From positions 64,589 through 108,914 of IMG/VR virus record IMGVR_UViG_3300047160_021165: a stretch of 44,326 nt of DNA, one strand, 5' to 3'. Origin of the DNA: a virus. The notes under the pieces are model-generated. The model searched no databases and was not told the origin of the DNA. It worked only from the letters and a program-made list of their open reading frames with translations. Position 1 is the first letter of the stretch; every line of letters begins with the position of its first letter. Below are positions 5,166-34,552 of the stretch, piece after piece. The translations under genes were made by a program, and so were the position numbers.

Positions 5166-5192
5166 TAAAGAAAATCCAGAAAGCTCCGATAG
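5166..5192 (+). promoter_or_regulatory. sigma28-type promoter
   Basis: TAAAG...TCCGATAG with TAAA-N15 spacing. Confidence 0.65.
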
Positions 5193-5200
5193 GGTACAAG

Positions 5201-5312
5201 TAAGTTGATTGTTGTCACCCGGTCAACTTATGGATCCTGGCACTGGATCAAGTTTCATCCGTTGGGGTCATCAGAGTTTTCTCTCCTTTCGCTCTGCTGG
5301 CCCCTTTAGGAG
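5201..5312 (+). ncRNA. Structured 5' leader (three hairpins, possible SD-sequestering pseudoknot)
   Basis: Stems 5201-5211/5220-5230, 5233-5237/5245-5249 and 5264-5276/5292-5304. Loop CTCCT (5283-5287) is complementary to the SD AGGAG (5308-5312). Confidence 0.45.
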
Positions 5313-5317
5313 TTTTT

Positions 5318-6025
5318 ATGGTTCTCTGGGCAATGTTAGTAACAACTCTTACTTGCTTTTTCGTATATATAATAGCGGAAATAGTTACCTTTCTAGCCAA
5401 TAGAAAGAATACTATGATGCCGATCGACGATTCCAAAATGTGCAAAAACCACTTATGGAAAGAATTAAGAATAGTAAATCCAGATGCGGAACCTGGAGCA
5501 GAGGAAGAACGAGTAACTGCATATTGCACAGCTTGTGGATATGTTCCCCAACTAGACGCCATGATGAAACCTAAGAAACTAGCCGAAAACAACGTTCTTA
5601 CTTTCGCTAGGGAAGAAGCTCTAGCCCAAAGAAAAGAATTTGATGATCTTGAGATGGAATTTCTGGAGCTTTTCTTAGGCAATGAAGCCGATTTCACCGC
5701 AGAGGAAAAAGAGCTGGTATCCAAGGGATATAGGGCTCATATGAAATTCATAGATTATGCCCCCCTACTACTGAGCTTGAAGGCTATGTCTAAAGCCTCT
5801 AAAAAGCTAGAGGAAGAGTTTAAAGCTCTGGAAAATTCAGCAGAAGCTGAAGCCCATAGGGAAGCATCGATTGTAAAACAAGAGTTAGAATTGTTGGAAA
5901 TGAACAAACAGATTTCCAAGGAAGAGTATATTCAAAACGTTCTTAAAGATGCTCATGATTTCGATGCATATCTTAAAGAATTGGAGAAAGAAATAGCTAA
6001 ATCCCAAAACCCTGACGAGCCCTAA
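5318..6025 (+). CDS. Hypothetical membrane-anchored protein with zinc ribbon and coiled coil
   Basis: AGGAG RBS, N-terminal hydrophobic helix, CKNHLW...CTACGY, acidic helical C-terminus. Confidence 0.65.
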   Translation: MVLWAMLVTTLTCFFVYIIAEIVTFLANRKNTMMPIDDSKMCKNHLWKELRIVNPDAEPGAEEERVTAYCTACGYVPQLDAMMKPKKLAENNVLTFAREEALAQRKEFDDLEMEFLELFLGNEADFTAEEKELVSKGYRAHMKFIDYAPLLLSLKAMSKASKKLEEEFKALENSAEAEAHREASIVKQELELLEMNKQISKEEYIQNVLKDAHDFDAYLKELEKEIAKSQNPDEP

Positions 6026-6473
6026 AATTCCAGGTACCTTCCCATACGCCTCGGGCATTTAGCTGCCCTGTTCCACCCGCGAATTTACAGCCGTAAGCGG
6101 TGTAGATGGGGGTCTCCCTGTAGCTCGTAATCTGCCCCTGGCTGTTTCTAACCGGGGTGGAATCTACAATCTCTATAATCAATTCGGGCTGAAGCAAGAT
6201 GGATTTAGGATCTTTTAGACTGTCCAAACTATAATCAGCCGCATTGTTGGATACTGATTGGCCGGAAACAGATGCATCTGGAGCTAATTTGATGAAGTTC
6301 AACGTCACAGAACATCTATGGCCGTTTTCTGCGTACTCAATGATCTGAAGATTGTCTAATTGAGGAATTTCTTCTAGACGGTTTTCGTGGGTAACAGATA
6401 CTCCGGCGGCAAAGGCTACTGTATCCCCACCCAATTTTATATTAGCTCTTGCACCGGTAATAACTGCTGCCAT
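5997..6473 (-). CDS. Tail tube protein paralog 2
   Basis: Clearly paralogous to 6555..7052 (VITGARANIKL, CKFAGGTGQLNARGVWEGTWNFRARQGFG). Confidence 0.75.
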   Translation of the reverse strand: MAAVITGARANIKLGGDTVAFAAGVSVTHENRLEEIPQLDNLQIIEYAENGHRCSVTLNFIKLAPDASVSGQSVSNNAADYSLDSLKDPKSILLQPELIIEIVDSTPVRNSQGQITSYRETPIYTAYGCKFAGGTGQLNARGVWEGTWNFRARQGFGI

Positions 6474-6481
6474 TTTGATAC

Positions 6482-6490
6482 CTTATATCA
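6482..6490 (-). promoter_or_regulatory. Late-type extended -10 promoter (TGaTATAAG)
   Basis: Directly after the terminator and just before the tube-2 ATG. Confidence 0.45.
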
Positions 6491-6492
6491 TT

Positions 6493-6535
6493 AAAAAAGC
6501 CGCTTGAGCACCTTTGGGGTATCTTAAGCGGCTTT
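6493..6535 (-). terminator. Rho-independent terminator after tail tube 1
   Basis: AAAGCCGCTTGAG...CTTAAGCGGCTTT inverted repeat with a T-run on the minus strand. Confidence 0.75.
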
Positions 6536-6554
6536 ACGGGTTTCTAAGGATTTA

Positions 6555-7052
6555 TTATAATCCGAAGCCTCTTTGTGCTTGGAATCTCCAAGTACCTTGC
6601 CAAATTCCGCGAGCTTCTAGACGACCAGTTCCACCTTCAAGTTTGCAGTTTTGCATGTAGAAGATAACCGCATCTTTGTTCAAATCATCAACGATTTCAA
6701 CATCAAAGTAAGCTTGTGAACGCATAGCGTCTACGTTGCCGGGGATAACTCCCGTAGCTCCGAAACCTGCAGAAGTATCGATTCCGATAGCAGCCGCTGT
6801 GTTTGGGAAAACTGCACCAGCACCAGCAGGAGTAGGAGCTCCCACTGTAGCTTGTGGGGGAACAGCTTTAAATGTATTGATTGTGAAGTTACATTTATGG
6901 CCAACTTCGGCTAAGTCAGCTCTTTCCAATTGACCAAGAACATCAACATCAGCCAATGTATTTTCTACATCGACATCGATTCCGCTGATGAAGCCAACGA
7001 GTACGCCGTTGATCTTAACTTTGCCTCTGGCTCCCGTCACAACCTGGGACAT
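6555..7052 (-). CDS. Tail tube protein (probably the major one)
   Basis: 165 aa, MSQVVTGARGKVKINGVLVGF, a typical contractile tail tube start. Followed by a terminator. Confidence 0.75.
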   Translation of the reverse strand: MSQVVTGARGKVKINGVLVGFISGIDVDVENTLADVDVLGQLERADLAEVGHKCNFTINTFKAVPPQATVGAPTPAGAGAVFPNTAAAIGIDTSAGFGATGVIPGNVDAMRSQAYFDVEIVDDLNKDAVIFYMQNCKLEGGTGRLEARGIWQGTWRFQAQRGFGL

Positions 7053-7057
7053 AATTA

Positions 7058-7549
7058 TTACTCCTCGAAATTATTACGTTTTCTTGAATTTTCTTCTTTT
7101 GTCAGGATTTGCAAATTACTAGGAACATGCAATCCGCAGACAGTCTTACCCTGTAATGGGATAATATGATCCACTTCATGTATTATACCAGTTTCCCTAG
7201 TCAACTTTCTGGCCAGAGTATAAATCTCTAATATTTTCTTGCGATCTTCAGCAGTTAGCCATTTTGGAGTGGCTTTTAGCCTCGTGGCCCTATAAGTTGC
7301 AATAAATGCAGCTACTTTATCTGCATTTTTCTTCTTATACCTGTGAACAGTAGCCAAGTATTTATCTCTATTTTTCTTCCGCCACTCCCTTTGCTCTGGC
7401 CATCTATTCCTCTTGGGCGTCCTAGCGTCTACTAATCTTCTACAAGGGGTACATTCTGGTCTCAACCCCGTAGAATGTTTACTAGCTTTCCCAAAGAATT
7501 CCGCCAGTTTATACTCCTTGCACTTAGAACAGACTTTGCCCTCGACCAC
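7058..7549 (-). CDS. HNH homing endonuclease
   Basis: N-terminal CSKC..CTPC zinc finger; C-terminal HEVDHIIPLQGKTVCGLHVPSNLQILTKEEN. Confidence 0.9.
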   Translation of the reverse strand: MVEGKVCSKCKEYKLAEFFGKASKHSTGLRPECTPCRRLVDARTPKRNRWPEQREWRKKNRDKYLATVHRYKKKNADKVAAFIATYRATRLKATPKWLTAEDRKKILEIYTLARKLTRETGIIHEVDHIIPLQGKTVCGLHVPSNLQILTKEENSRKRNNFEE

Positions 7550-7552
7550 GAT

Positions 7553-8095
7553 CTACTCTTCCCCACCACTGAGAACATCAGCCAGGCTGGAATTGAAAAG
7601 CAGCCCATATAGACCAGGATTATCAATAGGTTGATTTTGGAAAAGAATCCTATCTTTAGTGTAGATAGCGTATTCTTCCCCATTATCACCCAAAAATATG
7701 AATTGATCTAGAGACTTATTCAGGTGTTTGAAGGTAAGGGCAGTGCCAGCAGGGATAGTTTCCATAACCTCTTGGAAAGAACCAATATTTTGGGATTGGC
7801 TAGGTTTGGAAGCGTAGAAGCCGTCATCCTCTTCGCTCTTGGTCAAGCCGCCTAGAGTTTCAGTAGCATTTTGGATATTAGCTTTTAATATTATTGGAGT
7901 TTTTGATGTCATAGCCTTGATTAATTCTTGTTTCAAGATAGGCATAGCTTTTTTAAGAAAATCTTGTTGATTTTCTTGAGCTTCTAGGCGTTCGTGAGCC
8001 TTCTGGAAAAGCTCCTTGCTAGTCATTTGCCCATGGGCTTTGCGGCGGCGATCGTCGAAGCCACCTTTATAGTATTTGTTCCAGTCTATAGCCAT
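7553..8095 (-). CDS. Hypothetical late protein (probable virion/internal protein)
   Basis: Start reassigned to MAIDWNKYY at 8095 (AAGGA RBS, late promoter at 8124-8132). Several hydrophobic-x-K-[AS] motifs. Confidence 0.6.
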   Translation of the reverse strand: MAIDWNKYYKGGFDDRRRKAHGQMTSKELFQKAHERLEAQENQQDFLKKAMPILKQELIKAMTSKTPIILKANIQNATETLGGLTKSEEDDGFYASKPSQSQNIGSFQEVMETIPAGTALTFKHLNKSLDQFIFLGDNGEEYAIYTKDRILFQNQPIDNPGLYGLLFNSSLADVLSGGEE

Positions 8096-8123
8096 TAGTA
8101 GATCCTTAACCTGGTTTACTAAA

Positions 8124-8132
8124 AGTATATCA
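8124..8132 (-). promoter_or_regulatory. Late-type extended -10 promoter (TGaTATACT)
   Basis: Upstream of the 8095 ORF-HNH-tube operon. Confidence 0.55.
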
Positions 8133-8174
8133 TACGATAAAAGGCTTGGCATTTCGGGGTTTTATTAGAAAAAT

Positions 8175-8202
8175 TAAAGGTTTCGGCTTTGAAAACCGAT
8201 AG
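8175..8202 (+). promoter_or_regulatory. sigma28-type promoter
   Basis: TAAAGGTTT...ACCGATAG, TAAA-N16. Confidence 0.7.
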
Positions 8203-8211
8203 ATATCTACA

Positions 8212-9654
8212 ATGTTTATGGAGGATTCCGCATTGGAGAAGTTATTAAGCCCGATACAAGCGTTTAAATTGAGATATTTCCCCCTCTTAATGGTTTACTT
8301 TACCAGGGGATTTATTGCTCTAACAGCCGTAACTTCTACCTTCTTTATGAAGGATAAAATTTCCCTTAGTGCTGCAGAATTGATAACTTTGGGGATCTGG
8401 ACTGGCTTGCCTTGGTCTATCAAAATCGTATTCGGATCTTTCATAGATGGAATTCCTATTCTTGGTAATCACCGTAAATCCTACATTTATTTGGGTAATT
8501 TTCTTATACTTTTATCCTGCGTTGGGATGGTGGATCATGCATCTACCCAGATTCTATTCAACCATCTAGGCCAATTCGGAGGTCTTCTGGTTACTGGGCT
8601 CCTAGCCACCACTGGAACCGTTGTAGCTGGAATTATTGCCAGTACCATGGCTATAGAATTAGTGGATAAAGCTGGAAACGTAGACGAGGAATTGGGGAAT
8701 ATTCAAGTTTTGACCCAAATAGCCCTCGCAATCGGGTCACTGGGTGCGGCAGCAGTCACAGGTTATCTGGCTGCCCACTTCGCAACAGCTACAGTATTCG
8801 GCTTAGCGGCTGTTTGCCCGATCATTTCTATAGTGTCTACGGCAGCTGTCAAACTAAATGAACCAGAACACGTTTCTGTGCTGAATAAGCCTCTAATCAC
8901 AGCCGGCTTGATATATGCTGTCGTTTGCGTGCTTTGTGGGCTCTATTTGGCTGGATACGCTCAACCGGTGATCTTTTGCCTTAGTTTGACCGTTATTTCC
9001 AGCCTAATGTACTGGGTTACTAAATCCATGCCTCGAGATGCAAGAATTACTTTCTATCTCTCCATGGTAGCTATCTTCTTGTTCAGAACGGCTCCAGGAG
9101 CTGGTCCAAGTCTTTCTTGGTACTACATTAACAAGCTCGGGTTCGACGAAGAATTCCTTGGATTGCTGAGCCTTACCGGATCTTTGTTCTCCTTGGGGAT
9201 TTTATGGTTCTTCATGGACTATATGGCCAAATCTAATATCCCCAAAATATTGACCTATTTGACTATCTTAGCTACAATTCTCTCATTACCGGATATCATG
9301 GTATACTACCATATACATGAAATGATTGGGATTTCTGCTCGTCACTTGATCCTGATCGATAGCGCAGCAGCTACAGCCATTGCTGAGTTATCCATGATCC
9401 CACTGGGAGTTGTAATAGCCAAAAGCGCTCCTCCGGAACAAAGAGCCATTTATATCAGTTTAACGGCCTCTTTAATGAACCTAGCCCTAGTATTCAGCGA
9501 TCTTTTAACGAAGCAACTGAATACTATATTTGTAGTTACGAGAGAAGATTTCAGCCAATTGGGTCAATTACTGATCTGGAGTTTGATTCTCTCAACAGGA
9601 CTAAGTATTTTAGGCTTGGTAGTCCTGAAAATCAACGAGCTCAGAAGAGCTTAA
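8212..9654 (+). CDS. Folate-biopterin transporter (BT1 family, MFS)
   Basis: About 12 TM helices with BT1 motifs LPWSIKIVFGSFIDGIPILGNHRKSY, IFLFRTAPGAGP and ISLTASLMNLAL. The true start may be TTG 8233 (GGAGG RBS). Confidence 0.85.
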   Translation: MFMEDSALEKLLSPIQAFKLRYFPLLMVYFTRGFIALTAVTSTFFMKDKISLSAAELITLGIWTGLPWSIKIVFGSFIDGIPILGNHRKSYIYLGNFLILLSCVGMVDHASTQILFNHLGQFGGLLVTGLLATTGTVVAGIIASTMAIELVDKAGNVDEELGNIQVLTQIALAIGSLGAAAVTGYLAAHFATATVFGLAAVCPIISIVSTAAVKLNEPEHVSVLNKPLITAGLIYAVVCVLCGLYLAGYAQPVIFCLSLTVISSLMYWVTKSMPRDARITFYLSMVAIFLFRTAPGAGPSLSWYYINKLGFDEEFLGLLSLTGSLFSLGILWFFMDYMAKSNIPKILTYLTILATILSLPDIMVYYHIHEMIGISARHLILIDSAAATAIAELSMIPLGVVIAKSAPPEQRAIYISLTASLMNLALVFSDLLTKQLNTIFVVTREDFSQLGQLLIWSLILSTGLSILGLVVLKINELRRA

Positions 9655-10286: not shown

Positions 10287-10314
10287 TAAAGCTTTTTCTT
10301 TTTTATTCCGATGA
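10287..10314 (+). promoter_or_regulatory. sigma28-type promoter
   Basis: TAAAGCTTT...TCCGATGA, TAAA-N16, upstream of the GGAGG RBS of 10343. Confidence 0.6.
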
Positions 10315-10342: not shown

Positions 10343-10609
10343 ATGAAAAAATCTAATTCAGCATCAATAGCATTTTTCTGCGGAATAGCCGTGATGATGA
10401 TACTTTTTAGTGTCTATTCTGCCTTCCAATTTGATGGTCAAGCTCAAGTGGCAGACATGCGAGAAAAAGCTATAGAAGTTTGCGAATGCCACGGCGGCCT
10501 AAAATCCATCACCCCGAACCATTTTGGTGAGCCCACCGTCATGTGCAAAGATGGTCAAGTTTATACAAGCATAAGCTATGCGGTATTTACTTGTAGCGAG
10601 GGCAAATAA
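10343..10609 (+). CDS. Hypothetical membrane/exported protein
   Basis: N-terminal TM helix, Cys-rich C-terminus, GGAGG RBS. Confidence 0.65.
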   Translation: MKKSNSASIAFFCGIAVMMILFSVYSAFQFDGQAQVADMREKAIEVCECHGGLKSITPNHFGEPTVMCKDGQVYTSISYAVFTCSEGK

Positions 10610-10610
10610 G

Positions 10611-10994
10611 ATGTCGATTTTAAGATACACGGAAAAGTGCAAAAGTTGGACTACTTGTGAGCATCAATATACTCGCTTGGGTTTCGAGAGTCACACTATC
10701 CTAGATTTCTGCTCCAAGTGCGGATATATAGCCGGCTCTAGTAATAGAGCTATAGCCAAAAAACACTTCTCAGTTTTTCTAGATTTATCCGTTATTCAGG
10801 AAGTTACTCAGGCTCAAACCGCCACGGAACTAAGAAAACACCTGTATACAGCGTATATCGGGGAATCTAAATTGTTGGGCAAGGTGAGTAAGGAGACCTC
10901 TGAAAAGTTGGATTTTCAGGTTGAAATCATAGCTCTTTTAGCCCCTCTGACCCCGTTATCTGTGTTGGACGGCTATAAAGACCTACTTTTTTAG
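10611..10994 (+). CDS. Hypothetical zinc-ribbon protein
   Basis: CEHQY...CSKCGY. Start reassigned to the ATG after the previous stop. Confidence 0.55.
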   Translation: MSILRYTEKCKSWTTCEHQYTRLGFESHTILDFCSKCGYIAGSSNRAIAKKHFSVFLDLSVIQEVTQAQTATELRKHLYTAYIGESKLLGKVSKETSEKLDFQVEIIALLAPLTPLSVLDGYKDLLF

Positions 10995-11001
10995 GAGTCT
11001 A

Positions 11002-11250
11002 ATGATGAAGAAAATATTATTATTGATAATTTTCTCAATGATTCCAGCTGCCTGTGCTACCACTTACGATATCAACGAGCAGTGCACGGCGTACCAGCCC
11101 GGAGGGAAGATTTGGATATCCCCATTCACCACACTGACCGTGATTGAAGTACGTTTACGAGAAGATAGCATAATTTACCACGGATATTTGAATCACTTTG
11201 GCGTAGCTACAGATGAAGTGGCAAATTATAGGGGGCCATTATGTCGTTAA
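11002..11250 (+). CDS. Putative lipoprotein
   Basis: MKK + hydrophobic stretch + IPAAC lipobox-like motif. Confidence 0.6.
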   Translation: MMKKILLLIIFSMIPAACATTYDINEQCTAYQPGGKIWISPFTTLTVIEVRLREDSIIYHGYLNHFGVATDEVANYRGPLCR

Positions 11251-11561
11251 AATATGCCTTTCTACTACCTTTCTTGACCACTGGCTGTATAACTGTGAAC
11301 ACAGATAGACCGCCTCAAAGCGAAGTTTCTGTACGTCTCCACAAGGAATATAGGCTATACAGCTTACATGACGGTTATACGCCCCAGGAAGTTGCGGATC
11401 GCACCTGTAGAACGCTCAGAGCCGATAACGAAGTGGAAGCAACAGACATGAACATGATTCTCTTGGGCAAATTCAAGGATAAAAGAGGTAGGGTTTATCT
11501 TAAATATGATCTAGACTATACCTGCGAATTAGCAGGTTTACATCAAGAAGGAGATAATTAA
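11241..11561 (+). CDS. Putative lipoprotein
   Basis: Signal peptide ending LTTGC. Confidence 0.6.
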   Translation: MSLKYAFLLPFLTTGCITVNTDRPPQSEVSVRLHKEYRLYSLHDGYTPQEVADRTCRTLRADNEVEATDMNMILLGKFKDKRGRVYLKYDLDYTCELAGLHQEGDN

Positions 11562-11794
11562 TGCTAAATACTTTGATTATAATTCTGGTTTCTATTATGG
11601 TGGCTTGTGGAGTCATCATATTCGAGGATGGGAAATCTACCCATAAATACGTTCCTAAGATATTTGCTGGAGCTGCGGTAGGGCTAATAGCCGTTATTTT
11701 GCTGCAGGTTATTTTAGAGCATTTCCTCCTGATTCCTTTCCTGGGAGTTGCAGCGTATTTGATGTACTACAAACCAGAATACAAGTTCTGGTAG
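11561..11794 (+). CDS. Small membrane protein (2-3 TM)
   Basis: Hydrophobic helices, GGAG RBS. Confidence 0.6.
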   Translation: MLNTLIIILVSIMVACGVIIFEDGKSTHKYVPKIFAGAAVGLIAVILLQVILEHFLLIPFLGVAAYLMYYKPEYKFW

Positions 11795-11805
11795 AAAGAT
11801 CTAAC

Positions 11806-12372
11806 GTGAGATATACTAAATTCCTACTTTTGTTTATCTTAGCCTTCGCGCAAGGGTGCGCCACCTTTGGGGAAGTTGATCCTCAGGCCAAGCCATATTT
11901 GGACTCTTTCGTGTCAGAAGCCCATGAAAGGGGCTATTACCCCAACGTAGACAACTTGTCTATTTATATTAAGCCCAAGGATTCTTTATCCATGGAACTA
12001 GTATCTGACAATGCTCTGGCATATTGCATGCCCCTAGCCATAGGTACCAGTAGAGACCGAGATTTCATTCCCAGCTTTGGGGAATACATCATAATAAGTA
12101 AGGAATATTGGGATGCTGCCCCAGATGCCGGTCGAGAAGATACCCTATTCCACGAATTAGGCCACTGCATTCTCAATAGAGTTCATACAACTAAGCTACT
12201 TCCAATGTGGGACGGAACCTACCGACCAGCTTCTCTGATGTATCCTACTGATTTTCCTGGTATTATCTACCTAGAATATAGAAAAGAATATATAGATGAG
12301 CTGTTTGAAAACGCACCCTTCTATATAAAACACAGACTCATGGAAAACGGGCCAATTAAGGCAACAAAGTAA
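11806..12372 (+). CDS. Metzincin-like zinc metalloprotease lipoprotein
   Basis: Lipobox AQGC, zinc motif HELGHCILNRVH, Met-turn SLMYP. Confidence 0.8.
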   Translation: MRYTKFLLLFILAFAQGCATFGEVDPQAKPYLDSFVSEAHERGYYPNVDNLSIYIKPKDSLSMELVSDNALAYCMPLAIGTSRDRDFIPSFGEYIIISKEYWDAAPDAGREDTLFHELGHCILNRVHTTKLLPMWDGTYRPASLMYPTDFPGIIYLEYRKEYIDELFENAPFYIKHRLMENGPIKATK

Positions 12373-15745: not shown

Positions 15746-15781
15746 ATAATCTCCTTTGAGCGGTGTTCTCGCTTAATCTTG

Positions 15782-15790
15782 ATTATATCA
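15782..15790 (-). promoter_or_regulatory. Late-type extended -10 promoter (TGaTATAAT)
   Basis: Perfect extended -10 upstream of the sheath operon. Confidence 0.65.
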
Positions 15791-16075: not shown

Positions 16076-16558
16076 CTATGGTCTAACCCAGTATTCCCAT
16101 TTAGCTTTTACGGATTTATCCGGAAAGTCTTCTTCATTAAGCTTAAGAAGGCCTTTATTCCAGTCCATGGGAAAGAAAATAGTGGCGTTAAAGCAGTCTT
16201 CTTCGATCTGGGTTATATGGAAACTAGTGGCTAAGGGGATGGTTTTACGGTAGATTTCTCCGCCCCCAGCCACAAATAGATTTTCACAACCTTCACTTTC
16301 GGCCCAAGCTATGGCGGATTTGACGTCGGGGAACACATAAGCTCCCTTAATGCTTAATGGCATATCGGAAATTACCAAATTTATTCTATTTTTTAGAGGA
16401 CTACCTATGGAGACGAAGGTATTATAGCCCATAAGTACATATTGATTCGTAGTAAGGTGCCTGAAACGCTCTAAATCGGCTTTTAGAGGCCATATAAGAG
16501 TATTATTGACTCCTAATTCCAGGTTCTTTCCTATAGAGGCTATGATCGAAATACGCAT
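16076..16558 (-). CDS. folA: Dihydrofolate reductase
   Basis: ISIIASIGKNLELG..LIWPLKADLERF, MGYNTF, PLKNRINLVIS, VAGGGEIY. Confidence 0.92.
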   Translation of the reverse strand: MRISIIASIGKNLELGVNNTLIWPLKADLERFRHLTTNQYVLMGYNTFVSIGSPLKNRINLVISDMPLSIKGAYVFPDVKSAIAWAESEGCENLFVAGGGEIYRKTIPLATSFHITQIEEDCFNATIFFPMDWNKGLLKLNEEDFPDKSVKAKWEYWVRP

Positions 16559-17340
16559 TATACGGCTACCTTTGCTTTAATCGAGGGGTGCGGATTATAG
16601 CCCTCTAGTTCAAAATCCTCAAATTTATAGTCAAATATGGAATCCGTCTTTCTCAGAATATTAAGTTTGGGTAAAGGTCTAGAATCCCTACATAATTGGA
16701 TTACTACACCATCTAAGTGGTTATTATATAAGTGGGTATCTCCGCCTACCCATATGAACTCCCCCAGACCAAAGCCACATTGCTCAGCAACCATGTGCGT
16801 TAGGAGAGCATAAGAGGCTATATTGAATGGGACGCCCAAGAAGATATCGGCGCTGCGCTGGTAAAGCTGACAACTGAGGCGATTCTTATTATCTACCCAG
16901 AACTGAAAGAGGCAGTGACATGGGGGAAGAGCCATTTGGGCTAATTGGCCTGGGTTCCAGGCTACTACTACGGCTCTCCGAGAATGAGGGTCTTTCTTCA
17001 GGAGTTCTACAACATTAGCTATTTGATCTATGCCGTTGGAATTACGCCATTGAGCTCCGTAAATAGGCCCTAAGTCACCGTTTTCATCAGCCCATTCGTT
17101 CCAAATGGTGACTCCGTTGTCGTTAAGGTATTTAACATTCGTATTACCATCCAAAAACCATAGCAATTCATGGACTATAGATTTCCAGTGAAGCTTTTTG
17201 GTGGTAAGTATGGGAAATCCTTCATTTAAGTCGAAACGCATAGTTTCGCCAAATAAGGATTTGGTGCCGGTTCCAGTACGATCCGGCTTATCTACGCCAT
17301 GTTCAAGGAGTTTTCTGAGAAGAATTGAATATTGATACAT
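16558..17340 (-). CDS. thyA: Thymidylate synthase
   Basis: [49 protein letters not shown]. No intron evident. Confidence 0.97.
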
Positions 17341-17358: not shown

Positions 17359-17388
17359 AGACTAGCATAAAGGGCCGGTATCAGTCAA
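17359..17388 (-). promoter_or_regulatory. sigma70-type promoter of thyA-dfr
   Basis: TTGACT-N18-TAGTCT with TGn extension. Confidence 0.5.
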
Positions 17389-21055: not shown

Positions 21056-21091
21056 TATAAGCCCTTAAAATAAAAAGCTCTCTCTAAGGCA

Positions 21092-21100
21092 ATTATACCA
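21092..21100 (-). promoter_or_regulatory. Late-type extended -10 promoter (TGgTATAAT)
   Basis: Shares TATAATTGCCTTA with the site at 39072-39080. Confidence 0.65.
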
Positions 21101-22068: not shown

Positions 22069-22671
22069 TTATCTCCATTTACAGCTAGGATATTTGGTTA
22101 TATCCTCTAGATTTATTATATTTCTTTTTGCTCTATTATCCTCGGCTTTCAGATATTGAAGATTTTCAAGGACGTGAAAACCAGATACCAGCTCTCCTCT
22201 AATAGGTATTATATGATCTACTTCATAACCCTCAGGGCATCCCATATAAAACTCTTTAATGGCCCTCAAATCCGCCCACTTAGGGGTGACTTTAAATTTT
22301 TTTGTTCTATATTCGGCCGTTATGGCATTGTATCTAGCTTTATTACGAGCGTGATGAAGCCGGCTGTACTCTCGTCGTTTCCTCATGTACTCCGGATCAT
22401 TCTTCAGTAGTTGATGATACAGCCTAGATTTGGAGTTATGATACTGTTTAGTCCGAATATAATAGTTATGGTCTGAATCCGGGTGATTTAATCTATAATT
22501 TTTGCAATTTTCCCTATGTTTGCCAGAATCTCTATAAGCCTTATCTGCTATTTTTGAACAATTCTTGCAATGAGCTTTCCTGAAAAGTTGGCTGGCATAA
22601 CCTCCTTTTCTGAAATCTTCTAATGGTTTTAATATGTTGCATCTAGTGCAAACTTTACCTTGCTCTTCCAT
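22069..22671 (-). CDS. HNH homing endonuclease
   Basis: CTRC..CKNC zinc finger; TPKWAD..YEVDHIIPIRGELVSGFHVLENLQYL. Paralog of 7058..7549. Confidence 0.9.
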   Translation of the reverse strand: MEEQGKVCTRCNILKPLEDFRKGGYASQLFRKAHCKNCSKIADKAYRDSGKHRENCKNYRLNHPDSDHNYYIRTKQYHNSKSRLYHQLLKNDPEYMRKRREYSRLHHARNKARYNAITAEYRTKKFKVTPKWADLRAIKEFYMGCPEGYEVDHIIPIRGELVSGFHVLENLQYLKAEDNRAKRNIINLEDITKYPSCKWR

Positions 22672-22750
22672 CTAGCCCTCTAGATCTTGTTATTTCTACC
22701 CTTAATTATAGCCCTAACCTAGGGTAAAAGCTCAATATTTGGTAACTTTC

Positions 22751-22777
22751 TAAAGTTTACTGAACATTATCCGATAC
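22751..22777 (+). promoter_or_regulatory. sigma28-type promoter
   Basis: TAAAGTTT-N11-TCCGATAC. Confidence 0.7.
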
Positions 22778-22839
22778 AGTAAATGTTCATAAGTTCTCCA
22801 AAACGGGAACTAACTTCGGTTTTAGTTATTTGTCCGAAG

Positions 22840-23049
22840 TTAGTTCTTGGAGGACAACCCCTCTTTGCAATCTCTTACTAACTCAATGATTTCTTTCATA
22901 TCTTTTCTTGCTAAATTATGATAAACCACTTGCAAATCATTCCAAATAGGCTTAATTTCTTCTTTTTTGGCCTCTAACTCTTCATCAGTCATAGATACAA
23001 TTTGTACGAGTTTTTCAATTAAGGCTACTAATTCTTGATTTTTGTTCAT
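22840..23049 (-). CDS. Hypothetical protein
   Basis: GGAG RBS, 69 aa helical. Confidence 0.6.
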   Translation of the reverse strand: MNKNQELVALIEKLVQIVSMTDEELEAKKEEIKPIWNDLQVVYHNLARKDMKEIIELVRDCKEGLSSKN

Positions 23050-23064: not shown

Positions 23065-23092
23065 TAAAGTTTCTACCTAATTATACCGATAT
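23065..23092 (+). promoter_or_regulatory. sigma28-type promoter
   Basis: TAAAGTTT-N12-ACCGATAT. Confidence 0.7.
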
Positions 23093-23325: not shown

Positions 23326-23433
23326 ATGCTCAATGAAATCGATAGTTTAGGTCCAGTAGGCTATCTAGCCCTGATTATATTGATCTTTGTGTTTTTATTT
23401 ATTCTTTATTTAGGCATGTTGGACGGGGAATAG
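23326..23433 (+). CDS. Small membrane peptide (35 aa)
   Basis: AAGGA RBS; MLNEIDSLGPVGYLALIILIFVFLFILYLGMLDGE. Confidence 0.5.
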   Translation: MLNEIDSLGPVGYLALIILIFVFLFILYLGMLDGE

Positions 23434-25329: not shown

Positions 25330-25358
25330 AGTATACATGTAAAAAAGGCTAAAGTAAA
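25330..25358 (-). promoter_or_regulatory. sigma70-type promoter
   Basis: TTTACT-N17-TATACT, overlapping the divergent sigma28 site. Confidence 0.45.
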
Positions 25359-25377
25359 GTGCGGTATATGCCGATAA
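25350..25377 (+). promoter_or_regulatory. sigma28-type promoter
   Basis: TAAAGT...GCCGATAA, TAAA-N16. Confidence 0.75.
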
Positions 25378-25407: not shown

Positions 25408-25920
25408 ATGTTCAAAGTGGGTCAAAGAGTTTACTGCGTTGACAAAAGATATAAAAGGCGTCTCTATGCTTGTGTGCTAAAGAGTGTACCGATAGGAGAT
25501 GATACAGAATATCTAGTGGAAACACCTAGATATGATCATTCCATCATCATTGGTGAGGAATATACACTCATATTCGCTGATCTGGAAGAAGCTAAACGAG
25601 TGGTTTTAGATCACTGGAAAAAAGAGTTAGCTGAAACGGAAAGCGAATATCCGGGCTACGTAGGATATATAGGAAAACTAAGAGAAGCCTATAAAAGAGA
25701 TGTGGAAGCCTTATGGCGAGAAGCTCAAAATCCCTATTTTAACCCTAAAGGTAGAGATGCAGATCAGGGGACTTCTTTATATTGGAAAGTGAGTCGATCA
25801 TACGGCGATCTTCTACAAGAATGTAGAGTTGACCATGAAACTGTATGGCGAGAGGCTATTTACGAAAAAGAGAAGGAAATTCAGAGGATTGAAGCTTTAA
25901 CTAAAGAAGACTTTGAATAA
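25408..25920 (+). CDS. Hypothetical SH3/KOW-like family protein
   Basis: MFKVGQRVYCV...IFADLEEA, coiled-coil tail. Confidence 0.6.
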   Translation: MFKVGQRVYCVDKRYKRRLYACVLKSVPIGDDTEYLVETPRYDHSIIIGEEYTLIFADLEEAKRVVLDHWKKELAETESEYPGYVGYIGKLREAYKRDVEALWREAQNPYFNPKGRDADQGTSLYWKVSRSYGDLLQECRVDHETVWREAIYEKEKEIQRIEALTKEDFE

Positions 25921-25929
25921 TGCCGATAA
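25902..25929 (+). promoter_or_regulatory. sigma28-type promoter
   Basis: TAAAG..GCCGATAA (TAAA-N16) followed by the conserved GTAATATGTAAGT. Confidence 0.7.
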
Positions 25930-26367: not shown

Positions 26368-26394
26368 TAAAGTTTCAGCTAGCAATACCGATAA
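26368..26394 (+). promoter_or_regulatory. sigma28-type promoter
   Basis: TAAAGTTT-N11-ACCGATAA. Confidence 0.8.
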
Positions 26395-27209: not shown

Positions 27210-27584
27210 TTACTTTCCTTCTTCTATTAGTTTTCTAAGTCTTCCAATTTCTTCCACGGCTAAATAGAATGCTCGTGCGGATACTTGAGGCTCTGTCCCC
27301 ATAAAAGGGGAATTGGCTCTATGGATAAAAGCCGGTAACTCGTTAAAAACGTTGAAATCTAGGCTTTGGTTGCACAACATGATCAAGAGGTTAAGATGTT
27401 CAGTTTGTATACTGCTGAACGTAGCTTCCCCATCTATCCATTCCCTTTTAACCAAGTCTTCCATTATAAGTTTTAGTTCTCTTAGCCCATCTTGAACAAA
27501 TCCAGCTTTCAGGTTATCTTTATGTAACTCTAAGATTTCCAAGTATTCTTTGGCTAATACCCCGAATCTCTCTACGTTGTCCAT
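27210..27584 (-). CDS. Hypothetical protein
   Basis: First gene after the sigma70-type promoter. Confidence 0.6.
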   Translation of the reverse strand: MDNVERFGVLAKEYLEILELHKDNLKAGFVQDGLRELKLIMEDLVKREWIDGEATFSSIQTEHLNLLIMLCNQSLDFNVFNELPAFIHRANSPFMGTEPQVSARAFYLAVEEIGRLRKLIEEGK

Positions 27585-27617: not shown

Positions 27618-27646
27618 ACTATGACATAATCCCGTTAACAAGTCAA
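27618..27646 (-). promoter_or_regulatory. sigma70-type promoter
   Basis: TTGACT-N17-CATAGT with TGn extension. Confidence 0.5.
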
Positions 27647-27758
27647 CGCCCAGTAACCTATAAACTAAGGTTGTATCTTGGTTTATACGGAAAAATCTAA
27701 ACTATTAGTTTAAATAAATCTTTAATAATACTAATACGTTGCATTTATAGGGATAAAT

Positions 27759-28088
27759 TTAAACTAATTCTGAACTGTATTCGGCTATTCCATCTCTGTA
27801 ATCTATTATTTTACTCATCCCTTGAAGATATGTGGGACCTTCATAATCTTCACACAGATCTACAATCTTTTGAATTTCTTCTATTTTACTTCCCCAATGG
27901 GCTAAAGCGGCACTGATAGCTTCTTTACGATCGAAATAAACATTATGAGACTCATCTTTGATGATTGCATCTAAGGTATCGGTAATATAGATATTTTTCC
28001 CAAATGCTGTAACCTCAACGACTTTTATTGATGTGATCCGCACCCATCGATCATCGATATACCAGCCCTCTTTTGGTTCCAGTTCCAT
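27759..28088 (-). CDS. Hypothetical SH3-like family protein
   Basis: ITSIKVVEV...VYFDRKEAISAALAHW. Confidence 0.55.
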   Translation of the reverse strand: MELEPKEGWYIDDRWVRITSIKVVEVTAFGKNIYITDTLDAIIKDESHNVYFDRKEAISAALAHWGSKIEEIQKIVDLCEDYEGPTYLQGMSKIIDYRDGIAEYSSELV

Positions 28089-29559: not shown

Positions 29560-29586
29560 TTATCGGCATTGGTGGCTAAAACTTTA
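29560..29586 (-). promoter_or_regulatory. sigma28-type promoter (perfect consensus)
   Basis: TAAAGTTT-N11-GCCGATAA. Confidence 0.85.
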
Positions 29587-29979: not shown

Positions 29980-30006
29980 TTATCGGTATTGCTAGCCTAA
30001 ACTTTA
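29980..30006 (-). promoter_or_regulatory. sigma28-type promoter
   Basis: TAAAGTTT-N11-ACCGATAA; nearly identical to 26368-26394. Confidence 0.8.
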
Positions 30007-30266: not shown

Positions 30267-30268
30267 AG

Positions 30269-30475: not shown

Positions 30476-30516
30476 TGTATTTCTATTTGCCTTATTGTTT
30501 GATTAGTCGAATAAGC

Positions 30517-30795
30517 CTAGCGGTTATCGTCTGCTTGGTGATCTTGAACTGGTTCGGCAGGAATCTTAATTGGAGGTAATGGTGGCTTCTTAGGCCAGCT
30601 GAATGTAAGCACGGTATTTCCTTCTTTATCGTGGGTTTCTATAATCATTATACTAGCATCCACGATATTGGCTACTGCTTTTTCATTCAGTTTTCTGAAT
30701 TCTTGTATACCTTTGATCATCTCTTTTTCCCTTAGGTATACAAACTGAGGCGCATTAGCTAAATGTTTCGGTATGTTACGCACTACGTCTTTCAT
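30517..30795 (-). CDS. Hypothetical protein
   Basis: GAGGAG RBS, overlap with the upstream ORF. Confidence 0.55.
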   Translation of the reverse strand: MKDVVRNIPKHLANAPQFVYLREKEMIKGIQEFRKLNEKAVANIVDASIMIIETHDKEGNTVLTFSWPKKPPLPPIKIPAEPVQDHQADDNR

Positions 30796-30986
30796 TTTAA
30801 ATACTCCTCTATTCTTCTAAGTTCTTGTAAAAAATGTACTTTTAATTCTAAAAGCTCAGCCCTTTGTTCTACAGAGAGTGTGGGATCGGCTAACTTTATA
30901 TCCCCTCTTCTGATGCACTCTAGAACCAGAGGCTTTTGTATTCCAGCTAGGAATCGATTCCATTTAGCTTTTAACCAAGATTTCAT
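30792..30986 (-). CDS. Hypothetical protein
   Basis: GGAGG RBS directly after the sigma28-type promoter. Confidence 0.6.
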   Translation of the reverse strand: MKSWLKAKWNRFLAGIQKPLVLECIRRGDIKLADPTLSVEQRAELLELKVHFLQELRRIEEYLK

Positions 30987-31011
30987 AATAATCTTCCTCC
31001 ACTTTCATACC

Positions 31012-31039
31012 ATATCGGACGTTCTAGGGATTGACTTTA
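31012..31039 (-). promoter_or_regulatory. sigma28-type promoter
   Basis: TAAAGT...TCCGATAT, TAAA-N16. Confidence 0.6.
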
Positions 31040-31063
31040 CTATTTTACAAATACTCTTTTATA

Positions 31064-31783
31064 TCAGAATCTTGGACCTTTTCTTATATTATCTATAGCC
31101 CATAGAGGTTGCAAATTAGTGTAATGGCACGCCGCTCTGAATTGTTCCTCGTTAGAAAGATTGAAGGCAGATAGAGGTATTATGTGATCTATATGCCAGC
31201 CCTTTTTACCCCGATTTTCCCAAGTCATACCGGGCATGAACTTGGATTCTATATAAGCTTTGAGCTCTTCTATTGAGCAGCCTAAATCCCTCACTGCGGA
31301 GCCACCTTTATCCTTCTTCCCCAGCAGGGCATCAGATACTCTGGTTCTGAGAAGTCTTTTGAGTTTATTGTGTATTTTCAAACCCTCTCTATCTACGATA
31401 TAAGCTGGATTTTTAGTACCTTTATTAAAATCCGTATTTTTGTTTTGCCAGCGGACTTGACATTTGGGGCCACAGAATGTCATTTTATACAATTCTAAAT
31501 GTCTTTTAGTTCTCCTTTGGAGATTCCCACAATATAGACAGGGGATTATGCATTTTATCTTGTAATTTTTTGGATTTTCTGTGCTTATTTTTCGTCTCAA
31601 CGCTCTCATTTCAGCGGACTTCTGAAGACAATCCTTACAAGAGCCATGGGTTCTATCTAATTTCTTGGCTCTATTTCTTTCGATACGTCTTGTCCTCCCG
31701 CACTTGGAACAAATGTGTTCAATAGTGTAGAAAGTTACTCCAGATGCGCCCCTCACTCTTTGATCTGTCCCAAGAACTATCAC
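31064..31783 (-). CDS. HNH homing endonuclease
   Basis: LGCSIEELKAYIESKF..MTWEN..WHIDHIIPLSAF..HYTNLQPLWAIDN, with N-terminal zinc fingers. Confidence 0.88.
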   Translation of the reverse strand: MIVLGTDQRVRGASGVTFYTIEHICSKCGRTRRIERNRAKKLDRTHGSCKDCLQKSAEMRALRRKISTENPKNYKIKCIIPCLYCGNLQRRTKRHLELYKMTFCGPKCQVRWQNKNTDFNKGTKNPAYIVDREGLKIHNKLKRLLRTRVSDALLGKKDKGGSAVRDLGCSIEELKAYIESKFMPGMTWENRGKKGWHIDHIIPLSAFNLSNEEQFRAACHYTNLQPLWAIDNIRKGPRF

Positions 31784-32505
31784 ATTAAATCCTTGATAAT
31801 TTGATCTATCTTAGATATGATTTCCGCTTCTGCATCATCAAAGGCTTTAATACCGGAAAATCCTTTATTAATCCAAGGCTTACCGTTTTCGCTGATAGTT
31901 CGATAATTAATATATATCGAACGTATGTTTCCTGTATCGGCATCTCTTGATTGATACTTGACTAAATTGTTTAACATAGGGTTTTCGCTCTTGGAAGTAG
32001 CTACTTTACCTACTATGGGATTGCCTTGAGCATTAGTAAACAAGTCAGCCATGCTTTGCTTACGACCAGCTGCATTAGTTGCAGACATAGCCTTAATGGC
32101 ATCAACCATGTTAGCCGCCCCAGCTGGGGCTTCTATCTTGCGCTCCATGGGGATATGCGTATACTTGTGTCCATCTTTGGCTGTCTTGACGTTCTTAGCG
32201 TTAAGCAACCCCTTGGACATATCGAAGCTAGGGTATCCATCTTCCAATGCTTCAGCCCACTTACCCTCTAAGGATATAAGGAATTGATTATCGCCCAAAT
32301 CCTCAAACGTAAGCCCCTGGAGATATTGACTACGGGTAGAATGGAGCTTAGCATTAGCTTTGGCTACAATAGTTGCATAAGCTGCAGCCGCTGTTTCCTG
32401 AATAGCTTTACTGACTTCCCGCTCTACAGATGGGGCTAAGTTTTCCATAGATTTCTTCAGTTGATCTAAGGACTTATCTAGCTTTATTTTTAGCTGATTC
32501 GGCAT
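31780..32505 (-). CDS. Tail completion / neck protein (HK97 gp10-like)
   Basis: KLHSTRSQYLQGL..AEALEDGYPSFDM..YRTISEN..WINKG. Confidence 0.55.
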   Translation of the reverse strand: MPNQLKIKLDKSLDQLKKSMENLAPSVEREVSKAIQETAAAAYATIVAKANAKLHSTRSQYLQGLTFEDLGDNQFLISLEGKWAEALEDGYPSFDMSKGLLNAKNVKTAKDGHKYTHIPMERKIEAPAGAANMVDAIKAMSATNAAGRKQSMADLFTNAQGNPIVGKVATSKSENPMLNNLVKYQSRDADTGNIRSIYINYRTISENGKPWINKGFSGIKAFDDAEAEIISKIDQIIKDLM

Positions 32506-32689
32506 ATTTTTCTCTATAGAGTTTAGCCTGGGCTCTTTGTGTTTGAGCGTATTCTTTGCTATACGCTTTGATTTTTTCTTTATTGGCTTCGTAATAGTCT
32601 TTTTGATAGAGTTTCGCGTAGACTTTACGTAGCTCTCTGACTTCAGCTTTGAGTTCTTCTATGCGTTGCAAAATTAATGTTTCTTCCAT
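32474..32689 (-). CDS. Basic helical-repeat protein
   Basis: YYEANKEKIKAYSKEY repeat; start reassigned to MEETLIL (AGGAG RBS). Confidence 0.55.
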   Translation of the reverse strand: MEETLILQRIEELKAEVRELRKVYAKLYQKDYYEANKEKIKAYSKEYAQTQRAQAKLYREKYAESAKNKAR

Positions 32690-32691
32690 GA

Positions 32692-32937
32692 TTATAGCTC
32701 CTTTAACCAATCTTTAACGAAAGACACGTCTTGGATTTGTTTATAGCGTCCAAGATCCTGCCAATAAACTCTTATCCACTCGTGTCCATTACCCATAACT
32801 ATGAAATTGTAGTCATAATGAGGTATAGGTTCTCCCGCAGGGATTACTAAGTAAATATTAGTAAAATTGGGATCTTGTAATAAAGTCCAGTGCTTGGATA
32901 GAATCAATTCTTTGCCTATGTGCTCAATGGGCATCAT
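32692..32937 (-). CDS. Hypothetical protein
   Basis: GGAG RBS, in-operon ORF. Confidence 0.55.
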   Translation of the reverse strand: MMPIEHIGKELILSKHWTLLQDPNFTNIYLVIPAGEPIPHYDYNFIVMGNGHEWIRVYWQDLGRYKQIQDVSFVKDWLKEL

Positions 32938-32941
32938 GATT

Positions 32942-33088
32942 CTATCTCCCGATAGCCGGGATACAAGTAGATGTTGCTACTGGATGTTCTTGCGGGCTTG
33001 GGAAAGGTCTTTGCTTCGAATAAAGCATTATGGCAGCAAAAATTATGGCTACCGTAAGAACTTTAATACCTAAAGTTTGTTTATCCAT
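32942..33088 (-). CDS. Small membrane-anchored protein (48 aa)
   Basis: AAGGAG RBS; MDKQTLGIKVLTVAIIFAAIMLYSKQRP...; first gene after the promoter. Confidence 0.55.
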   Translation of the reverse strand: MDKQTLGIKVLTVAIIFAAIMLYSKQRPFPSPQEHPVATSTCIPAIGR

Positions 33089-33120
33089 GATAACTCCTTC
33101 GCTTTATAAGCATATGGGCT

Positions 33121-33147
33121 TTATCGGTAGATTTTAATAAAACCTTA
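33121..33147 (-). promoter_or_regulatory. sigma28-type promoter
   Basis: TAAGGTTT-N11-ACCGATAA. Confidence 0.7.
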
Positions 33148-33160
33148 GAAAACTATATAA

Positions 33161-34408
33161 CTATTTGATTATTTTAAGCTTTTTCTTGCGTAATACGGCT
33201 ACGTTACGTTCTATCCAGAACGACTCAGATCTACTAGATCGTTTCAGCTTTTTAAGACTACGTTCTACTCTTTGGCGTACGTTTTCTCTGGTTTTTTCAA
33301 GTTTTGCACCAATAGCTGAGTGCGTGCTAGCGCTCTTTTCACCTATTCCAAAGCGTAGACGCATGATCTTTTCATCGGTAGGATCCAGAGTACTTAACAG
33401 TTCTCGTACTCTATCGTTTAGTTCTTCTTCCATGATGTAATCTAGAGGGCTAACAGCTTCTTCATCAGCCATAGAGTCCATGGGTAACCGGCCCTCAGCC
33501 GAAGCCAAATCTTCTATGTAATTTATAGGGCTAGTGGCATTCTTAACCTTTTCAGCCTTTTCTTCCGATATATGCATGGATTCGGAAAGTTCTTCTATGC
33601 TAGGATCACGCCCCAGTTCTTTCTGGAGTTTGTTGTTGATCTTGGACATTTTGTTAATGTTATCAACCATGTGGACTGGTACACGGATTAATCTGGCTTT
33701 ATCTGACAACGCTCTACCTAAAGCTTGATCTATCCACCAAGTAGCGTAAGTAGAGAACTTATAACCCTTTTCTACATCATATTTCTCAATGGCTTTGAGT
33801 AAGCCAATGTTGCCCTCTTGGATCAGATCTTCTAGGCTTAATCCTTTGTTTAAAAGGGTTTTAGCGCGACTGAATACAAGTCTAAGGTTAGAGGTCACAA
33901 GCTTGGTGCGGGCTGCCTGCATCGCGTTTAAATGCGTTTCCAGGTGCTTAACCTGAGTAGCCGTGCCGAAGTCCTTGATAGGCTGAGATATATGGCGTAA
34001 ATCACGTTCAGTGAAAAGGATTCTCAATAAAAATTCATGTAATTTAGCTTCGGATCCTTTGACCTTTTTGACCCTATCTACGAGCAATAGTTCCAAGCCA
34101 TCTAATGCTTTGAGAATTTCTTCTTTGGGAGCATTTTCTTCTACTACTCCAAAGAACATCTTACGGAGCTCAATGATGTTCAGGCTCTTCAGAGCGTATA
34201 GTTCGGTAATGCAGTCATCAGATTGGACACAAAGCTTAAGAATGCTTTTCTTGGCATCTCGGATCTTAGTGGCTAATTCGATCTCTTCCTCTTTGGTGAG
34301 CAGCTTATATTTCTGGGCTGCTTTTTTATAGGATTCGATTGAGGATAAGCTTTCGGTGCTATAAGTTTCTGGAAATTCCAAGTCATTGAATTCATTATAC
34401 TTTGACAT
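33161..34408 (-). CDS. Phage-encoded RpoD-like sigma70 factor
   Basis: Region 1.2 LLTKEEEIELA, non-conserved region, region 2 NLRLV..DLIQEGNIGLLKAIEKYD..GYKFSTYATWWI, RVPVHM, region 4 MRLRFGIG..TRENVRQ. Confidence 0.93.
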   Translation of the reverse strand: MSKYNEFNDLEFPETYSTESLSSIESYKKAAQKYKLLTKEEEIELATKIRDAKKSILKLCVQSDDCITELYALKSLNIIELRKMFFGVVEENAPKEEILKALDGLELLLVDRVKKVKGSEAKLHEFLLRILFTERDLRHISQPIKDFGTATQVKHLETHLNAMQAARTKLVTSNLRLVFSRAKTLLNKGLSLEDLIQEGNIGLLKAIEKYDVEKGYKFSTYATWWIDQALGRALSDKARLIRVPVHMVDNINKMSKINNKLQKELGRDPSIEELSESMHISEEKAEKVKNATSPINYIEDLASAEGRLPMDSMADEEAVSPLDYIMEEELNDRVRELLSTLDPTDEKIMRLRFGIGEKSASTHSAIGAKLEKTRENVRQRVERSLKKLKRSSRSESFWIERNVAVLRKKKLKIIK

Positions 34409-34456
34409 ATTGGAAACTTTTTAGCTATGGGTTAGATTTTTATGGGACGTAAAAAT

Positions 34457-34485
34457 ACCTTAGCAAATTCAGAGGGATTTGTCAA
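34457..34485 (-). promoter_or_regulatory. sigma70-type promoter of the sigma gene
   Basis: TTGACA-N17-TAAGGT with TGn extension. Confidence 0.6.
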
Positions 34486-34524
34486 GTCCAAAAGATTGAT
34501 TTACTTGGGAGTTTTAAAATAAAT

Positions 34525-34552
34525 TAAAGGTTTGATAGGTTTGTGCCGATCA
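34525..34552 (+). promoter_or_regulatory. sigma28-type promoter
   Basis: TAAAGGTTT...GCCGATCA, TAAA-N16. Confidence 0.65.

Follow-up and report, generated by a model that had tools for sequence, protein, structure and literature searches.

The window analysed here is the last 44.3 kb (bases 64589-108914) of IMG/VR record IMGVR_UViG_3300047160_021165, a complete phage record of 108,914 bp, and positions below are those of the window unless the genome is named. Within it lie 13 copies of a motif of the type that sigma-28 (FliA/SigD), the flagellar sigma factor, reads, nearly all in intergenic DNA, together with a phage gene for an RpoD-like sigma factor. The sigma-28 promoter is a textbook type, and phages normally rely on the primary sigma factor of the host to read their early promoters. 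The genome has direct terminal repeats and a G+C content of 41%, and encodes a contractile tail sheath, DNA polymerase A, DnaB, ribonucleotide reductase, RecA, GroEL, thyA and dfr. Its major head protein is ~30% identical to those of SPO1-like phages, and comparison of its proteins found no closely related cultured phage. Many of its open reading frames (ORFs) have no family assignment.

Sigma-28-type sites in the window and the whole genome

With the search pattern TAA[AG]G-N15/16-CCGAT, the window contains exactly 13 matches, nine on the plus strand and four on the minus strand, and these are the same 13 copies, at the same positions, that the initial annotation had pointed out. The enrichment across the complete genome, which that annotation had left to be checked, is borne out: there are 19 matches, where Markov models lead one to expect 0.8 (order-2) or 1.8 (order-4) and simulated genomes (30 per model) reach five at most, an excess that is somewhat inflated because the pattern was derived from these very sites. 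Three results are independent of how the pattern was defined, namely the spacer profile, the bias towards intergenic DNA and the controls with reversed patterns. Nine matches have a spacer of 15 nt and 10 have one of 16 nt, and each other length between 5 and 29 nt gives 0-2. Fifteen of the 19 sites are wholly intergenic, compared with 4.5% of random 25-mers (binomial p ~2e-17), and 18 have a gene on the same strand within 160 nt downstream. When the sites are turned into a profile, 22 genome matches reach at least 15 bits, against one for the reversed profile. The pattern is also not rare among uncultured phages, with at least 120 matches in viral contigs against seven for its reverse.

The -35 box reads TAAAG in 17 of the 19 genome sites and TAAGG in the other two, and at each of the three positions that follow, which lie outside the search pattern, T is the commonest base (11, 14 and 13 of 19). 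CCGAT is followed by A in 15 sites and by a second A in 11, and the leading G is present in only six. The sites combine the features of a sigma-28 promoter, i.e. a TAAAG(TTT) -35 box, a (G)CCGATAA -10 box, a fixed short spacing and an orientation upstream of genes, so the assignment to the FliA/SigD type made in the initial annotation holds. A strict form of the pattern, CTAAAGTTT-N11/12-RCCGATAAG, was found in metagenome contigs upstream of flgM five times and of flagellin genes three times, and the other genes among its 78 downstream ORFs include cheR and response regulators. Since it precedes flgM, flagellin and motility-signalling genes, the strict pattern marks real sigma-28 regulons.

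Could the sites be something other than promoters, either chance matches or the remains of a copied repeat? Four of them, in the region of 25-30 kb, have 24-59 nt in common beyond the boxes and probably spread by duplication; the site at 26368, for example, is 85-86% alike over 41-59 nt to those at 29586 and 30006. Against this stand the number of sites relative to the simulated genomes, the sharp spacer peak, the intergenic placement and the orientation. In addition, both boxes are kept before the orthologous genes of relatives while the spacers have diverged, as seen for the BT1 transporter gene in the relative G006 and for a 235-aa ORF in G006 and L165. A non-promoter origin is therefore hardly credible for the set as a whole. 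For single matches it differs: the genome site 27744-27769, inside the ribonucleotide reductase gene and with a low score of 12.4, may be a chance match. We also rejected a looser match ahead of a late gene (39086-39109), as it is off consensus and a late-type site follows directly after it.

On the plus strand, the first site (5166-5190, spacer 15) heads a 235-aa ORF (5318-6025) through a 128-nt structured leader and stands back to back with a late promoter. The leader (5200-5320, plus strand) folds with a z score of -4.3 and places a hairpin beside the ribosome-binding site of this ORF, and the orthologue of the ORF in G006 and L165 has a site of the same type before it. The second site (8175-8200, spacer 16) heads the gene of a BT1 folate-biopterin transporter (8212-9654). 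The database form of this transporter has 473 aa, so its start is probably the TTG at 8233, behind GGAGG; among the relatives compared, BT1 occurs only in G004 and G006, both of which bear the motif. The third (10287-10312, spacer 16) heads a series of small ORFs at 10343-12372. The site at 22751-22775 (spacer 15) has no adjoining ORF and is followed by a long hairpin at 22793-22855 (plus strand, -31.3 kcal/mol, z -6.0), which overlaps the end of a 69-aa ORF on the minus strand (22840-23049). The hairpin has no clear homologue in five relatives, and site and hairpin together are a candidate for a small or antisense RNA; neither the hairpin nor the leader of the 235-aa ORF has an Rfam match, and no such match was found anywhere in the whole genome.

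Next on this strand, the site at 23065-23090 (spacer 16) heads ORFs of 54, 35 and 232 aa, the second of which (23326-23433, plus strand) is hydrophobic and has a ribosome-binding site. Those at 25350-25375 (spacer 16), 25902-25927 (spacer 16) and 26368-26392 (spacer 15) head ORFs of 170, 119 and 66 aa, and that at 34525-34550 (spacer 16), divergent from the promoter of the phage sigma gene, heads one of 45 aa. On the minus strand, the site at 29560-29586 heads a 108-aa ORF and is identical to the Escherichia coli consensus TAAAGTTT-n11-GCCGATAA, as first noticed in the initial annotation and now checked against the published sequence (PMC2859248). The remaining three sites, at 29982-30006 (spacer 15), 31014-31039 (spacer 16) and 33123-33147 (spacer 15), head ORFs of 79 aa, 64 aa (30792-30986) and 48 aa, and the last of these sites lies directly 3' of the sigma gene. 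Most of the first genes of this class have no orthologue in the relatives. At 5133-5190, 22700-22775 and 34457-34550, a sigma-28-type site stands back to back with a promoter of another class on the opposite strand, and L165 and L167 likewise have a sigma-28-type site divergent from their sigma gene.

This survey qualifies two statements of the initial annotation. It had placed all 13 copies at gene junctions, and 12 are indeed fully intergenic, while the site at 25902 overlaps the end of the preceding ORF. It had also described the motif as a signal of accessory genes, with 12 of the 13 copies pointing at one: a same-strand ORF does lie 12-128 nt downstream of 12 sites (the site at 22751 faces the hairpin antisense to a small ORF), but the accessory block at 27210-27584 has a sigma-70-type promoter, and outside the window the motif heads the genes of an NRAMP transporter and a Clp protease as well as a minus-strand block with GroEL and DnaB. 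The NRAMP-family transporter (L001:7429-8709, minus strand) occurs among the relatives only in G004, which bears the motif. As that annotation also stated, virion genes are never directly preceded by a sigma-28-type site (0 cases).

Other promoter classes and the phage sigma factor

Three promoter classes sort by gene type in this genome. The sigma-28-type class (class F) precedes small accessory ORFs, BT1, NRAMP, the Clp protease gene and the GroEL/DnaB block. A second class (class M), CTTGAC-N17-TA..T, precedes the sigma gene, thyA and a few others. A third (class L), TGnTATAAT without a -35 box, precedes the protease, sheath, baseplate and other late blocks, and a gene begins within 150 nt of each of its 11 exact matches. 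The second class includes the minus-strand promoter at 34457-34485 (TTGACA-17-TAAGGT, with TG before the -10 box), which heads the phage sigma gene and whose counterpart in G006 and L166 is of the sigma-70 type too. Further promoters of this class, also on the minus strand, head thyA (promoter 17360-17388, gene 16558-17340) and the accessory ORF 27210-27584 (promoter 27618-27646). The Clp protease gene has a sigma-28-type and a sigma-70-type site in tandem. A generic sigma-70 scan of 20-40 kb gave 38 sites against 48 expected and is not informative. Because sigma-70-type promoters are present, one of them before the phage sigma gene, RpoD of the host is probably used as well.

The late-type sites of the window are all on the minus strand. 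They lie before a tail assembly chaperone-like gene (5133-5142), at the head of the block with the tail sheath gene (15781-15790; kept in L165, L167 and G004), before the head maturation protease gene (21091-21100) and before a 652-aa gene that heads a head-morphogenesis block (39071-39080). Eight relatives, both motif-bearing and motif-free ones, have retained the last of these.

The phage sigma gene (33161-34408, minus strand) lies between the sigma-28-type sites at 33147 and 34525 and encodes 415 aa with regions 1.2, 2, 3 and 4 and no region 1.1. The initial annotation, which had named a phage-encoded sigma factor or RNA polymerase recognising the motif as the rival to a host reader, overlooked it. 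It is RpoD-like and the sole sigma-70-family gene of the genome, which lacks a FliA-like gene and in which a beta gene of a multisubunit RNA polymerase was not detected. Its top-scoring models are those of RpoD, and it remains below the RpoD equivalog cut-offs (252 vs 354 bits). The FliA model TIGR02479 gives 85 bits, below the cut-off of 189.6, which leaves it outside FliA/WhiG. Unlike FliA/WhiG, it has region 1.2 and a 115-aa insert, and it matches RpoD/SigA chains both by sequence and by predicted fold. The modelled fold is thus RpoD/SigA-like, and judged by its sequence the protein is RpoD-derived and not FliA-like. Among 50,697 phage records, it has no full-length match. Since the phage sigma is RpoD-derived and fits another promoter class, the idea of a host reader is left standing.

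In an alignment of 23 phage orthologues with 23 bacterial RpoDs, the phage sigma keeps the residues equivalent to W433, W434, Q437, H455, E585 and R588 (E. coli RpoD numbering), positions with which RpoD melts and reads the -10 box and the extended -10 element. It carries the changes R436D, T440G and Q446K, and its region 4.2 is altered. Conservation across the phage orthologues is 0.88 for region 2.3-2.4 and 0.60 for the recognition helix of region 4.2, compared with 1.00 for this helix in the bacterial RpoDs. The residue equivalent to R436, which follows WWI, is Asp or Glu in 23/23 phage sigmas and Arg in 23/23 bacterial RpoDs, a replacement that tracks the phage sigma family and not the sigma-28 motif. 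A conserved -10 reader combined with a drifting -35 helix suits a promoter class without a -35 box and not one in which this box is near-invariant. The protein fits, by these features, a role at the late TGnTATAAT class before structural genes.

Among the other genes, the genome codes for S-adenosylmethionine decarboxylase, a uracil-DNA glycosylase family protein and a second Clp protease, and five of its small ORFs, including 22069-22671 of the window, match endonuclease VII-like families.

Reader of the sites and probable host

The phage sigma itself might have changed its specificity and read the motif, so that the sites would form a middle class internal to the phage, whose likeness to the flagellar consensus would be due to convergence. 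Motif and a sigma subtype of 410-420 aa do co-occur in the phage family, R436D and Q446K are fixed in region 2.4, and region 4.2 is changed. In G004, region 4.2 reads RVSQ, as it does in FliA. Phage sigmas with bipartite promoters of their own also exist, as in phage 7-11 (PMC8948821). Nevertheless, we regard this explanation as improbable. R436D and Q446K occur also in relatives without the motif. G002, G007, G009, G013, G014, G016 and G017 have a sigma with the same WWIDQ signature and no motif set (0-2 profile matches). The residues for -10 melting and for the extended -10 element are RpoD-like, and region 4.2 varies widely while the -35 box does not. The co-occurrence within the family amounts to one evolutionary event, and as it concerns one branch only, we rejected it as proof of a phage reader.

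Moreover, the same motif is found in unrelated phages that have no detectable sigma or one without region 4.2. The complete phages G028, G058, G062, G063 and G036 have 7-11 exact sites each; the first three have 1-4 proteins in common with the phage studied here, and G036 has none. G032, G056 and G029, with 19, 9 and 10 sites, encode RpoD-derived sigmas that stop short of region 4.2, which was not found elsewhere in the records of G032 and G056. RpoD-derived sigmas of motif-bearing phages (L297:1024-2058 on the plus strand, L299:997-2025 on the plus strand and L300:1465-2484 on the minus strand) are ~340 aa long, stop just after region 4.1 and have no helix to read a -35 box.

These unrelated phages also bear on the proposal that the motif is read by an unrecognised phage protein, such as a highly diverged sigma or a protein able to redirect the host polymerase. 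Many ORFs belong to no family and profile searches can miss divergent sigmas, which would allow for such a protein. However, phages with so few or no common proteins have the same consensus, and this consensus also marks bacterial flgM and flagellin genes. A common host factor is the simpler explanation. An unrecognised reader is accordingly most unlikely. The RpoD-like residues of the phage sigma, the motif-free relatives with the same sigma signature and the presence of the motif in phages without a usable sigma together point to sigma-28 of the host, which is the likely reader of these sites.

Transcription from the sites, the reader of each class, the timing and the host are what we infer here. 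We favour, with moderate confidence, a reading in which the sites are sigma-28-type promoters used by FliA/SigD of the host as the first, or one of the two first, transcription classes, and in which the phage sigma serves the late class. In such an infection by a lytic myovirus, the host FliA/SigD holoenzyme would drive the small accessory genes, the uptake genes BT1 and NRAMP and part of the replication block. RpoD of the host would read the few sigma-70-type promoters and so supply the phage sigma and thyA. The phage sigma, with its conserved -10 reader and drifting -35 reader, would then serve the virion genes through their extended -10 late promoters. The host would probably be a Gram-negative bacterium with an infectable state in which FliA is a main sigma factor and RpoD is scarce, for which Bdellovibrionota would be the best fit. 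In G004 there are 14 sites of the sigma-28 type and no gene is preceded by a strict sigma-70 site, compared with 7-15 sigma-70 sites before genes in the motif-free relatives G005, G021, G002 and G001, as would be expected if the sigma-28-type class replaces the early class.

Host sigma-28 might instead read the sites as a side channel only, with infection launched from the sigma-70-type promoters and the accessory and uptake genes added only in a motile host. Sigma-70-type promoters precede the sigma gene, thyA and one or more accessory blocks, the Clp protease gene carries both types in tandem, and most first genes of the sigma-28-type class look dispensable, as they lack orthologues in relatives. 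Reading of the host state also has a precedent in the CtrA sites of phages of Alphaproteobacteria (PMC9437464). The promoter set of G004 argues against a side channel, as does the sigma gene of L167, which is preceded by a near-consensus sigma-28-type site alone. In addition, one site heads the GroEL/DnaB block, though a sigma-70-type site lies further upstream. We consider a side channel rather unlikely.

The GH24 lysozyme of the phage has no wall-binding domain, which hints at a Gram-negative host. The phage sigmas have the sequence RFGIGE before region 4.2 in common with 57 bacterial matches, and the named RpoDs that bear it come from Deltaproteobacteria, Desulfovibrionaceae and Nannocystaceae. 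The initial annotation had mentioned attack-phase Bdellovibrio as a possible host. In Bdellovibrio bacteriovorus, the attack-phase FliA promoter is TTAAG-N16-CCGATA, and FliA-type sites make up 92 of 140 attack-phase promoters (PMC3627812; Table S2 read by eye). Expression of rpoD in this organism is 19.5 reads per kilobase per million (RPKM) in the attack phase and 1834 in the growth phase, and the values for groEL are 13.8 and 4421 (PMC3627812). Scarcity of rpoD in the attack phase would account for the RpoD that a phage infecting such cells carries itself. The 16-nt spacers, the free base before CCGAT and the hints of a delta-type RpoD donor lend indirect support to the Bdellovibrio idea, and the cultured Bdellovibrio phages, discussed below, do not. 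We put a host among the Bdellovibrionota at slightly less than an even chance.

The alternative suggestion of the initial annotation, a flagellum-binding phage, finds no support in two phages of that kind. The flagellum-binding phage 7-7-1 has no sites, and the five profile matches of phage chi, another flagellum binder, all lie within genes, overlap a start codon or are antisense; flagellum binding alone thus does not bring sigma-28 wiring. The tail proteins of the phage studied here have generic matches only. One match in chi (40092, L471:4093-4121, plus strand) scores 21 bits and lies inside gp36, ~215 nt before the lysis cassette; it may be due to chance.

Several observations weigh against the favoured reading of an infection that starts on the motility sigma of the host. 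The phage sigma gene has a sigma-70-type promoter, so that infection would not depend on FliA only. In G001, late-type TGnTATAAT sites are present and a sigma gene is not detectable, which means that the late class can exist without a phage sigma; G003 has neither and must use another late signal. In a tree of the sheath proteins, the motif-bearing genomes of the phage family form one clade, which also has the 410-420-aa sigma subtype, and a co-occurrence that goes back to a single evolutionary event is as compatible with a change of specificity as with a change of host. No Sigma70_r2 match was found in G028, G058, G062, G063 and G036, a search that a very divergent sigma could escape, and the records of G032, G056 and G029 are incomplete. 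With regard to the host, no named taxon emerges from cluster names, from the Atlas or from the homologues found for six genes (sigma, BT1, lysozyme, GroEL, DNA polymerase and thyA). Sigma-28-type sites are absent from phi1402 and phi1422, two cultured phages of Bdellovibrio; the host strain in the phi1402 record, H-I 109, is by our own reading host-independent. Finally, sigma-70 promoters do work in attack-phase Bdellovibrio (PMC12622784).

Comparison with known systems

We found no published description of a phage-wide sigma-28 promoter class, lytic phages included, in a search that left most subscription journals outside. An early class that spans the genome and depends on the flagellar sigma would reveal phages tuned to the state of the host cell and not just to its species. 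Speculatively, several unrelated lineages of uncultured phages may infect non-growing, FliA-dominated swimmers, for instance attack-phase Bdellovibrionota, and start on their motility sigma, the larger ones bringing an RpoD derivative with them to provide the housekeeping-type transcription missing from these hosts. The motif is a possible host marker for uncultured phages and, if this picture is true, a sequence marker for phages of predatory bacteria. In addition, RpoD-derived phage sigmas whose -35 reader is decaying or missing are a natural tool for studying extended -10 recognition.

The class 3 flagellar promoters read by sigma-28 in E. coli have a consensus with 15-nt spacing (PMC2859248). 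The phage sites have both boxes, one is an exact match and 9 of 19 have the same spacing, whereas the other 10 are one base longer and the base before CCGAT is free. The targets also differ, being accessory, uptake and replication genes instead of motility genes. The attack-phase regulon of B. bacteriovorus (PMC3627812) is similar in its common 16-nt spacer, the free base before CCGA, the frequent CCGATAAG and its many non-flagellar targets. By contrast, the -35 box of the phage varies far less (TAAAG in 17/19), and phi1402 and phi1422 lack such a set.

A promoter proposed to recruit FliA of the host has been described for the flagellin gene fliC_P of an Enterobacter prophage (bioRxiv 10.1101/2023.11.30.569447). 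There, however, one flagellin gene of a lysogen is concerned, and here ~20 promoters of a lytic-type genome, none of them before a flagellar gene. The CtrA-site phages of Alphaproteobacteria (PMC9437464) likewise have genes tied to a regulator of the host's motile, infectable state, an arrangement that arose in several phage lineages. CtrA is a transcription factor that acts there on a small gene set, with deferment of lysis as the proposed role, whereas the sites described here are core promoters for an alternative sigma factor.

Sigma cascades are known in phages, with SPO1 gp28 and gp33/34 and T4 gp55 among the cases. Further examples are phiEco32 gp36 and phage 7-11 gp47 (PMC8948821). As proposed here, these phages use a phage sigma for later genes, and one-box late promoters occur in phiEco32 too. 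In those cascades, however, the early class is read by the primary sigma of the host and the phage sigma is short and divergent, whereas in the phage studied here the first class would be of the sigma-28 type and the sigma that the phage encodes is an almost complete derivative of RpoD. If true, the use of the host motility sigma first and of an RpoD derivative afterwards reverses the usual phage order, in which the primary sigma comes first and an alternative one later.

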